From: a virus
IMG/VR virus record: IMGVR_UViG_3300017585_000072
Coordinates: 1 to 24,963 of that record
Reading direction: 5' to 3' (one strand)
DNA length: 24,963 nucleotides
In this document: piece by piece, positions 10,449 through 13,758 of the stretch
How positions within the stretch are numbered: the first letter of the stretch is position 1
Layout: every line of letters starts with the position of its first letter
Made by a program: the position numbers and the translations under genes
Notes under the pieces: generated by a model
Told to the model about the DNA's origin: nothing
The model's database searches: none
Seen by the model: only the letters and a program-made list of their open reading frames with translations

Positions 10449-11465
10449 ATGTCAAGATATGATGATGATAATTTCAACAGCGGGAACGGAATGAACAGAC
10501 AGAGAGACCTGGTTCTTTCTACTAATGAATTCTGTTTCCTCCAGAGTAAGACTAATGGCTCTATTAAGACGTATACGGGGCCAATCTCTGTGACTATCAG
10601 TGCGCAGGAAAGTCTTGTAGTATTTAATGAAAAGACAAAGAGATTCGAGGAGACTCAGGATTTCGAGAAGGCGCGGCAGCTGTTTACTTCTGCTCCTGAG
10701 GGCTGGTACGTTGTGATGAAGAATCCGAGCAAGGATGAGACACATCCGGAGGCTGGTAAGGCGGCTAATGCCGCGGAACTGCGTATCGGTAGAAAAATTA
10801 ATATCGCGGGACCCTGCTCATTCTCTCTGTATCCAGGTCAGATGACAAAGGTAGTCCGTGGTCATCGTCTCCGCTCTAACCAGTATCTGCTGGCACGAGT
10901 TTATGACGCGGATGCTGCAAAGCAGGGCATGGATGCAGCAACTATTATTGATACCCAGGGTAAAGAAGTTTCTGATAAGACTCAGAATCAGTATTTCGCA
11001 GGCCAGCTTTTGGTAATTAAGGGTACTGAAGTGTCCTTCTACATGCCGCCTACTGGTATCGAAGTAATTCCGGTCGGTGGTAAGGGTAATGATTACATTC
11101 GTAATGCAGTGACTCTTGAGAGACTTGAGTATGCAATTCTTAAAGACGAAGATGGTGAGAAGCGTTACGTACATGGCCCCGCTGTGGTATTCCCGAAGCC
11201 GACTGAGACCTTCGTTGAGACACCAAATGGTGGAACTATTTTTCGCGCGTTAGAGCTGTCTCCTATTAGCGGTATTTATGTAAAGGTAATTGCTGCGTAT
11301 GATGACACTGTAACTGAGAATGGTAAGAAGAAAACTATTCATCATCCTATTGGTGAAGAGCTGTTTATTACTGGTAATGACCAGATGATTTATTATCCGC
11401 GTCCGGAACATGCCATGATTCAGTATGATGGTAAGTATATGCATCATGCTATCGCGAAACTGTAA
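10449..11465 (+). CDS. major vault protein (MVP) homologue, N-terminal repeat region
   Basis: [20 protein letters not shown] matches MVP repeat 1 [47 protein letters not shown] matches [29 protein letters not shown] matches the GEEWLV repeat motif. Confidence 0.65.
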   Translation: [338 protein letters not shown]

Positions 11466-11476
11466 AAGGCCCGAAG

Positions 11477-12913
11477 ATGTATCTGCCGGATCCGCGTACC
11501 GAAGTAGTGGTCAAGAGAAAGCTGACAGAAAAAGAGTGTAAGTTGTTTTATCCGGATAACGCAGAAGTAATTGCATACAATGCGGGGTTGACTGAAAAAG
11601 CAGCTGAGAAAGCCGCCCGCAAGGGACAGACTAATACGACCTCTGAAATGATTAATGGGGGATACTTGACCGCAAATCAGGAATCTACACTGGCTATCTT
11701 TGAAGCCAATGCAAATATTAGTCGCGGAGTGTCTTATACTAAGCCGAGAACAATTACTCTTGATACTAAGTACGACGGTGTTGTCACTGTTAATGTATGG
11801 ACAGGGTATGCGATCAATGTGGTGAGTAAAACCGGTTCCCGCGAAGTGGTAGTTGGTCCTACAACTAGATTACTTGACTATGACGAGACTCTTGAGTCTA
11901 TGAGCCTGTCCACTGGCAAGCCTAAGACTACAGATAGACTGCTGACCACCGCATACTTGCGAGTAGAGAACAATAAAATTTCTGACCTGATTAATCTTCA
12001 GACGAGCGATTTTGTTGATGTGCAGGTAAAAGTTTCTTATTGCGTAGACTTCTTGCCGGAGTATAAAGATAAGTGGTTTAACGTAGAGAACTATGTAAAA
12101 TATATGTGTGATCGTGAACGCAGTCTACTCAAGAGGGAAGCTAAGAATCATACGATAGAAGATTTCTATGCTAATGCAACAGACATTGTGAGAAAGATTG
12201 TTCTTAATCAGGAAGCTGTCCATGCAGAAGGAGAACGCGCAGGCCGCTTGTTCAAAGAGAACGGTATGCTTGTCCATGACGTTGAAGTGTTGACTGTAGC
12301 TATTGAGCAGAATGTTGCTAATATTCTTGAAAGTCATCAGGAGGAGATGGTAACTAAAGCTCTGGAGCTATCCGCAGCAACTAAAAAGATGGAAGTTGTA
12401 ACTAAACTGGCTGAGTATGAACAGCGCGAGGCCGAGCTGAAACATGATAATGAAATCTACAGATTGACGCTGGCTAAGAGCACCCAGTTAGATAAGCTGG
12501 CCGCAGAAGCTGAAATCAATGAGAAGAAACGCGCGGAAGCCGAAGCTCAGAAGCAGGCTGAGAGTGACCTTCAGGAAATTCTCGATAAGATTGAAGCTGC
12601 TAAGTTGGAGCGTGCTAAGAAGGCTGACGAAGCAAAGCTTGAAACAGAAAGAAAACTGACCGAGATTGATAAGGCGAGACAGGAAGCATATGCCGCGACT
12701 GTGGCTAACATCATGGAATCTATCAGTCCTGACTTGATTGCAGCCCTTACTGCAAAAGCTAATGCATCTATGCTTGAAACTACTACACAGGCAATGAGTC
12801 CTATTGCTATTGCAAATGGTGAGTCTATTGCGGATACAACTAATAAACTGCTGAGAGGAACCTCTCTTGAAGGTGTTATTGATCAGCTTGTGAAAGTGAG
12901 AACAAAAGATTGA
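11477..12913 (+). CDS. MVP homologue, C-terminal part: last repeat, SPFH-like shoulder and coiled-coil cap-helix region
   Basis: [14 protein letters not shown]...[31 protein letters not shown] matches MVP RVVSYRVPHNAAVQ...[48 protein letters not shown] matches TADHARLQLQLAYNWHF. Long EA/KQ-rich coiled coil follows. Confidence 0.65.
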   Translation: [478 protein letters not shown]

Positions 12914-13758
12914 TGAAAGAGAAGAAAGCTCCTATTCGTACCATTGTCGCTGTCATTGTAATATTTGCAATTTTAATTGTCGCTCTGAACTCCTTTGTAG
13001 TCATTCCCAGTGGCTACACTGGAGTGAAGATAAAATTTGGCCAGATTTCAGAGCAAACTGTCCAAAATGGAATTAATTTTAAAATTCCTTTCATTGAAAA
13101 AATTGAGAAAGTGAATAACAAGCAACAGGATGTTACATTTGAAGGTCAGATTTGGTCTGAAACCTCTAATAGAACTGCTATTTACTACGATGGTATAACT
13201 GTTACTTATCAGATTGCAAAAGATAAATCCGCATGGATTTATGCTAATGTAACTAATTATAAAGATGCTCTGGTTACTTCAAACCTAGTGGCCTCCGCAA
13301 TTAAAGAGAGTAGCAAAGACCTTTCAGATTCCGATGCTACTAATCGTGGAAAGATTGAGCCATTAACTATGGAGAATCTTCAGGCTTCTCTTGATGAGAA
13401 ATATGGCGAAGATGTAATTATTATTAATAAAGTTACAATTTCCAATACAGATTTTGATGACTCATATAACCAGGCTATTGCGGAAAAGCAGCAGGCCCAA
13501 ATTGCTTATGAAAAGCAGCAGATTGAAAATCAGACTACGCTAGAGAAAGCGCAGACAGAAGCTGAAGCTAAAAAGATTGCCGCAGAGGCAGACGCGGAAG
13601 CCACGAAGATTAATGCGGCCGCGGAAGCCGAAGCTAACGAAGAATTGGCTAGTTCTATCACCCAAGAGCTAATTGATATGAAACTCGCGGAAGCTCGATT
13701 AGAGCACGGTTGGGTTACGGTCCAAGGGGTAGAAAGTATTATTACAGATAATAATTAA
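12910..13758 (+). CDS. SPFH/band-7 (prohibitin/HflC-like) membrane protein
   Basis: N-terminal TM then VIPSGYTGVKIKFGQI (HflK/C-like entry motif). TDFDDSYNQAIAEKQQAQ matches the prohibitin SPFH C-terminal helix. Ala/Glu coiled coil. Confidence 0.6.
   Translation: MMKEKKAPIRTIVAVIVIFAILIVALNSFVVIPSGYTGVKIKFGQISEQTVQNGINFKIPFIEKIEKVNNKQQDVTFEGQIWSETSNRTAIYYDGITVTYQIAKDKSAWIYANVTNYKDALVTSNLVASAIKESSKDLSDSDATNRGKIEPLTMENLQASLDEKYGEDVIIINKVTISNTDFDDSYNQAIAEKQQAQIAYEKQQIENQTTLEKAQTEAEAKKIAAEADAEATKINAAAEAEANEELASSITQELIDMKLAEARLEHGWVTVQGVESIITDNN

Follow-up and report, generated by a model that had tools for sequence, protein, structure and literature searches.

A phage homologue of the major vault protein split over two reading frames is very probably a broken allele of a single-chain gene

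Introduction

Major vault protein (MVP) family members are single polypeptides of about 800-900 residues. MVP-like proteins of bacteria were reported earlier (bioRxiv 10.1101/872010), and phage homologues have been described in two gut Caudoviricetes metagenome-assembled genomes (MAGs), ctOa11 and ct2Ri15, with no TEP1 or vPARP partner reported for them (Santos et al., bioRxiv 10.1101/2023.11.10.566534). Here, we analysed an MVP homologue on a stretch of viral DNA of 24,963 nt (IMG/VR record IMGVR_UViG_3300017585_000072, positions 1 to 24,963; 'the window'), whose coding sequence deviates from this one-chain rule in that it is divided over two open reading frames (ORFs) of 338 (ORF1) and 478 codons (ORF2). 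We conclude with high confidence that the window holds a phage MVP homologue of the single-chain kind in a broken form, caused by a deletion or by an assembly error, rather than a two-chain design or a case of recoding.

The intact counterpart of the window gene resembles the MVPs of ctOa11 and ct2Ri15 in size (838 residues), in possessing Vault repeat, shoulder and cap-helix regions, and in belonging to a tailed phage of the gut type, a likeness that is drawn from the published descriptions and not from a direct comparison of the proteins. What sets the window copy apart from the published phage MVPs is its interruption by a 52-nt deletion, and it is a new, damaged member of a kind of phage MVP that has already been described. 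Compared with the eukaryotic vault, for which a 78-mer shell of 39-mer halves is known, the phage protein comes from a virus of a bacterial host. As for the phage itself, a megablast search with the locus returned no near match among GenBank phages. Contigs of its relatives were binned with MAGs of Bacilli, Erysipelotrichaceae, Clostridium and Eubacteriales, which suggests a host among the Bacillota.

Results and discussion

Both halves of the split gene lie on the plus strand. ORF1 (10449-11465) encodes the MVP homologue's N-terminal fragment and terminates with a TAA codon at 11463-11465, and ORF2 (11477-12913), which encodes the C-terminal fragment, begins 11 nt further on in the -1 frame. 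Upstream of ORF2, stop codons interrupt this frame at 11426-11428 and 11432-11434, and from 11435 onwards it is open, so that an open stretch including the 11-nt gap between the ORFs covers 11435-11476; it holds no ATG, GTG or TTG ahead of 11477. Retranslation thereby reproduced the layout given in the original prediction, including the joined length of 816 residues.

The nature of the split became apparent from a comparison with a JGI metagenome contig (3300029976 Ga0315757_1000202; L001) whose genes are ordered as in the window. In blastn, the two align over 17.7 kb, with 99.86% identity in one block, 99.99% in the other and a single gap between them, the only one in the alignment. At the level of single bases, 52 nt of the contig (L001 positions 11010-11061; TTCCGGAGGGCGAAGGCCGCTATATTCTAAATCGTCTAAATGGTGAGATTAA) are missing from the window between 11457 and 11458, while the remainder of the MVP gene contains zero substitutions. 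The contig encodes a continuous protein of 838 residues (P0001), which is the best match to the joined ORF1 and ORF2 query and is identical to both ORFs except at the junction. As 52 equals 3n+1, everything downstream is shifted to the -1 frame: ORF1 comprises residues 1-336 of the intact protein, followed by a frameshift-derived KL and the TAA, whereas ORF2 corresponds to residues 361-838, that is, the end of repeat 7 (R7), R8-R9 (Vault_3), the shoulder and the cap-helix coiled coil. Hence, the 52-nt deletion accounts both for the KL tail with which ORF1 ends and for the open -1 stretch. In the intact gene, the nucleotides at 11459-11476 are ordinary coding sequence (TVKGPK), and the 'start codon' of ORF2 is an internal methionine, Met361, that is conserved without exception across 35 aligned homologues. 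In the same alignment, the 18 residues removed by the deletion occupy invariant or nearly invariant positions, and the two fragments together lack 24 residues (337-360). The junction shows 1 nt of microhomology (A); neither a flanking direct repeat that would explain the junction nor a DNA hairpin (z = +1.0) was found at the site. Judged from these alignments, the window and the contig represent the same phage. The window is nevertheless an independent sample of it and not a copy of the contig, since a diversity-generating retroelement (DGR; see below) has different variable repeats in the two and an identical template repeat.

A broader comparison points in the same direction. A search with the joined ORF1 and ORF2 sequence yielded more than 6,000 homologues, the best 120 of which are all single proteins of 818-858 residues. 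We further compared 58 MVP loci (47 from IMG/VR, with contigs mostly of 130-195 kb, nine MAG contigs, the locus of the homologue P0002, and L001), 57 of which gave a single tblastn segment in one frame. Each contig containing the whole gene encodes it as one continuous ORF, with the exception of one IMG/VR locus (L035), where the frame shifts because an A-run at residue 238, a site with no relation to the deletion, is one A short: positions 4926-4929 read GGGGAAAGAGA, and GGGGAAAAGAGA would be needed to keep D-G-E-K-R in frame. Taken from this locus, the base rate of sporadic MVP-gene interruption in metagenome assemblies is about 1 in 57.

An exhaustive phmmer search with ORF1 alone against 1.84 billion cluster representatives (clusters at 50% identity) detected 674 clusters at E <= 1e-3. 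Among the 150 best representatives, 138 have at least 646 residues and the remaining 12 are of assorted shorter lengths; in nearly all of the representatives, homology to ORF1 breaks off at query residue 336, with the subject protein extending further. The exact products of ORF1 and ORF2, on the other hand, had no counterpart in a collection covering 153 billion gene positions. Nor did exact searches of IMG/VR turn up the deletion junction or the corresponding intact sequence, and a flank pattern common to the two alleles had no match in the JGI metagenome collection, so that no second copy of the deletion allele came to light. A second contig, of 20-50 kb, does carry the upstream gene of 145 codons. 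The GenBank phage matches to the MVP homologue are confined to three huge-phage records (LR756500.1, LR756501.1 and LR756503.1; 462-735 kb), which encode continuous homologues with about 39% protein identity at 97-98% query coverage, and the family therefore reaches beyond phages of about 140 kb. Taken together, the MVP-like family of phages and prokaryotes is large and essentially always single-chain, and P0001 and its orthologues conform to the one-polypeptide organization from which the window copy departs. The original prediction had proposed examining orthologous loci for conservation of the split and had offered four explanations for it. The split proved not to be conserved: orthologues are continuous, and the window copy differs from its closest counterpart by the single 52-nt deletion. 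Of the four explanations, a frameshift mutation and a sequencing or assembly error are retained, whereas a two-chain protein and recoding are disfavoured by the single-ORF orthologues.

Where the lesion falls within the protein could be narrowed down by domain searches and by alignment to vault structures. ORF2 matches the Pfam families Vault_3 (PF17795; 30.3 bits, cut-off 28.8) and MVP_shoulder (PF11978; 79.4 bits, cut-off 25), and P0001 scores 35.5 bits for Vault_3 and 78.4 bits for MVP_shoulder, the latter at residues 525-636. Curated models thus recognize one vault repeat. ORF1 has no Pfam match of its own; it corresponds to the N-terminal part of the 838-residue MVP homologues. In a phmmer comparison with PDB chains, P0001 residues 320-806 align to MVP 323-808 (E about 1e-13), while residues 1-320 match nothing in Pfam or among the PDB sequences. 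In MVP, the counterpart of the deleted segment is at residues of about 340-357, including an EGEG motif that both proteins have. Since the crystal fragment R1-R7 extends from Met1 to Asp383, with five antiparallel strands per repeat (PMC2752026), the deletion lies in R7.

An AlphaFold2 model of P0001 built from 35 close homologues has a mean predicted local distance difference test score (pLDDT) of 50 and is trustworthy for the shoulder and the cap helix only, so the lost R7 strands are placed mainly by the phmmer alignment. The pLDDT is below 50 over most of residues 78-524, and the model places beta strands at 19-68 and 284-372 in the low-confidence N-terminal region, those around R7 being modelled at 321-325, 331-337, 342-347, 353-357, 360-362 and 369-372. 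A helix at 638-775 (pLDDT 70-88) aligns in phmmer with MVP's cap-helix region, up to residue 808; the cap helix of MVP itself spans 647-802 (PMC3595041). With this model, the first 12 Foldseek matches are all vault chains, although with low TM-scores, followed by HflK/C, prohibitin, flotillin and stomatin. Relative to eukaryotic MVP (4V60, 4HL8, 7PKZ, 9BW5, 9Z4W), the phage protein therefore shares shoulder and Vault_3 domains above their cut-offs and the top-ranking vault folds, but its identity in the Foldseek alignments is about 15-21%, and its N-terminal 320 residues are unmatched by sequence and of low confidence in the model. On these grounds, the intact gene product is predicted to combine beta-repeats in its N-terminal part with a shoulder domain and a long coiled coil formed by the cap helix. 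ORF1 would retain the first two strands of R7 and ORF2 the last, with the middle of the repeat being lost.

A shared contig start was noticed inside ORF2. The contigs L123 and L124 (JGI 3300029968 and 3300017569) both begin exactly at window position 12244, just after the stretch that encodes a length-variable segment of the MVP alignment. This suggests that strain heterogeneity or a recombination boundary at 12244 breaks assemblies.

How, then, might the split have come about, and could it be functional? The loss of 52 nt inside the R7-aligned repeat shifts the frame and brings a stop two codons on, leaving the remainder of the gene in the -1 frame, where an ORF finder picks it up from the conserved internal Met361. 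We lean slightly towards a very recent loss-of-function deletion that circulates in the phage population, yet an artefact introduced into the source record by assembly or sequencing is a serious contender, if the less probable of the two. Several observations sit uneasily with a simple broken copy and deserve mention together. The loss of 52 nt with 1 nt of microhomology and neither a flanking repeat nor a hairpin is atypical of short-read or homopolymer errors, which tips the balance towards a real variant. Conversely, there is no further decay anywhere in the MVP gene, so the deletion must be either very young or not real, and the split products are missing from the gene record, which leaves the window as the one sighting of the allele. 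Finally, a usable ATG near the stop, together with a weak AAAGG, makes expression of two chains conceivable. If the deletion is real, the 338-residue N-terminal fragment would be made and the 478-residue C-terminal fragment might arise by accidental, rather than designed, termination-reinitiation at 11477; a normal vault wall would be unlikely to form, with residues 337-360 missing from both fragments. For annotation purposes, ORF1 and ORF2 are best joined as one disrupted MVP-homologue gene instead of being listed as two proteins or as a recoding site.

Some alternatives grant the split a function. Programmed -1 frameshifting, or another form of recoding, would fuse ORF1 and ORF2 into a protein of about 816-821 residues, and the -1 frame is indeed open for 31 nt ahead of the ORF1 stop, an arrangement reminiscent of the G/GT tail-assembly chaperones known from lambda-like phages, where one ORF in the 0 frame and one in the -1 frame likewise share a short open overlap. 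Here, however, this overlap is produced by the deletion itself, and slippery site, stimulatory structure and conservation are all wanting. No X XXY YYZ heptamer is present in 11432-11465 or in frame anywhere in ORF1, in agreement with what had been noted at the outset for the junction; the RNA at 11458-11560 (103 nt) has a minimum free energy of -16.4 kcal/mol, compared with an average of -17.5 for shuffled versions (z = +0.40; pseudoknots are outside the folding model); and two frames at this site occur in no orthologue. Nor would a -1 shift restore an MVP, as had been supposed from the near-normal length of the fusion, given that the fused product would still lack the 18 invariant or nearly invariant residues. 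Recoding was rejected on the grounds of the absent heptamer, a downstream fold no better than that of shuffled sequences and these missing residues, and we give it next to no chance. A two-chain vault, in which an N-terminal barrel fragment co-assembles with a shoulder and cap fragment reinitiated at the ATG at 11477, is very improbable as well. It could draw on the 11-nt spacing between stop and ATG, on the AAAGG 7 nt upstream of the latter, on the undamaged remainder of the gene, and on the position of the break: in the rat vault, R7 is the one repeat without lateral packing contacts (PMC2752026), which would make it the least damaging place for an interruption. Yet the arrangement is seen in this record alone, the 99.9%-identical contig and the orthologues are single-chain, neither product is recorded elsewhere, and the split takes out 24 residues including an invariant motif. 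Besides, the sequence at the ORF2 'start' is unchanged coding sequence and not an evolved initiation site, and the neighbouring genes that we checked upstream and downstream are preceded by AGGAG/GGAGG-type sites, compared with only the weak AAAGG of ORF2. Similarly far-fetched is a joint scenario of a real, circulating allele that yields two polypeptides, the second through termination-reinitiation at Met361, and whose C-terminal fragment (R8-R9, shoulder and cap helix) still oligomerizes, perhaps together with a co-translated membrane SPFH protein, as a truncated cap-like cage; in another version, the allele would be an escape mutant, favoured by a host defence that detects the MVP shell when it is intact. 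The broken allele of a single-chain gene thus remains our preferred explanation.

The SPFH protein in question is encoded directly behind the MVP homologue (12913-13758, plus strand; 281 residues). Its start is likely the ATG at 12913 rather than the TTG at 12910, the mechanical ORF start, and the gene call on L001 likewise uses the ATG. This codon and the MVP stop overlap in the sequence TGATG; because of this overlap, the two genes are probably co-translated or co-expressed. The protein contains a Band_7 domain (PF01145; residues 31-210, 61.1 bits, cut-off 23.6, E 1.9e-16) and matches phrog_200, a widespread phage family. Read from the translation rather than by dedicated predictors of transmembrane or coiled-coil segments, it has a hydrophobic N-terminal segment (IRTIVAVIVIFAILIVALNSFVVI) and an Ala/Glu/Gln-rich stretch at about 185-250 in its C-terminal part. 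These features bear out its earlier description as an SPFH-type protein with an N-terminal anchor and an Ala/Glu-rich C-terminus, and they are shared with SPFH/Band 7 proteins such as HflK/C, prohibitin, stomatin and flotillin. It is not an equivalog of HflK or HflC, though, scoring 41.1 bits for TIGR01933 and 36.2 bits for TIGR01932 against cut-offs of 159.4 and 134.4, respectively. In contrast to HflK/HflC, it is encoded by a single gene and not by a pair, and no FtsH or NfeD partner was noticed in the window, where neither was searched for systematically.

Could this protein be a partner of MVP, for instance as a membrane-anchored SPFH cage that docks or nucleates the MVP shell? Apart from the TGATG overlap and the co-expression it implies, such a partnership could invoke the adjacency of the two genes, which is retained in three JGI samples of this phage (L001, L123 and L124), and the SPFH-like structure of the MVP shoulder plus cap helix. 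The resemblance of the shoulder to SPFH domains, which had been pointed out for this locus and fits the Foldseek ranking of HflK/C, prohibitin and stomatin behind MVP, is already known (Tanaka 2009, as cited in PMC3595041; also bioRxiv 10.1101/872010). Across the 58 MVP loci, however, only one has an SPFH gene within 6 kb, and that locus stems from the same phage; blastp, phmmer and tblastn detected none within this distance in 56 other MVP loci, including that of P0002 (L049), which at 79% identity is the nearest distinct relative. The reverse comparison agrees with this: the closest relatives of the SPFH protein (50-67% identity) are found on other, mostly smaller phage contigs that do not carry MVP, and none of 63 SPFH loci had an MVP gene in the fetched flanks. 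These data imply that SPFH works without MVP in other phages, and membership of the widespread phrog_200 likewise weighs against a partnership. ORF2 and the SPFH protein share no BLASTP similarity, which also speaks against a partnership; an origin of the SPFH gene by duplication of the C-terminal half of MVP was rejected for the same reason. The proposal of a prohibitin-like partner has therefore lost ground, the SPFH gene standing beside MVP only in this phage, and we consider a functional partnership unlikely, albeit less so than the two-chain vault. Instead, the comparative data indicate that the SPFH gene is a recent, lineage-specific insertion behind MVP in this phage only.

A different set of neighbours is encountered far more often than SPFH in these phages (about 130-195 kb). 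In the region considered (window 4983-17264 and loci L002-L049 and L113-L121), RNA-repair-type genes frequently adjoin MVP: an RNA ligase (PF09414/PF21189) is present within 6 kb in 35 of the 58 loci, usually 0.4-3 kb downstream and on the same strand, followed by Thg1-like (19 loci), Metallophos (12) and HD phosphohydrolase genes (9). In the window, the RNA ligase ORF is located at 16077-17264, and PARG-like (4983-5885) and RlaP-like genes (6632-7636) are present as well. This RNA-repair-type neighbourhood, for which we found no paper in the literature, may parallel the presence of RNA and PARP components in eukaryotic vaults, and we consider it, rather than SPFH, the better lead to the function of the bacterial-virus vault protein. 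An Rfam search of the window returned no known RNA and hence no vault-RNA-like element. The sole tRNA call by ARAGORN, a 94-nt tRNA-Ala (CGC) at 17013-17106 on the plus strand, is probably a false positive because it lies inside the RNA ligase ORF, where Rfam finds no tRNA.

Upstream of this region and on the minus strand, the window contains the DGR mentioned above (963-4898). It comprises a reverse transcriptase gene (963-2153), the template repeat (2463-2564), a small ORF (2761-3111) and a target gene (3138-4898) with the variable repeat (3174-3275) at its 3' end. An exact-product look-up of the window-specific target protein returned nothing on record. Over 102 nt, template and variable repeats share 85% identity, each of the 15 mismatches being at an adenine of the template. 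The window and L001 have the same template repeat, but their variable repeats differ at 13 positions, which account for 13 of the 16 substitutions separating the two. From this pattern, the retroelement is judged to be active.

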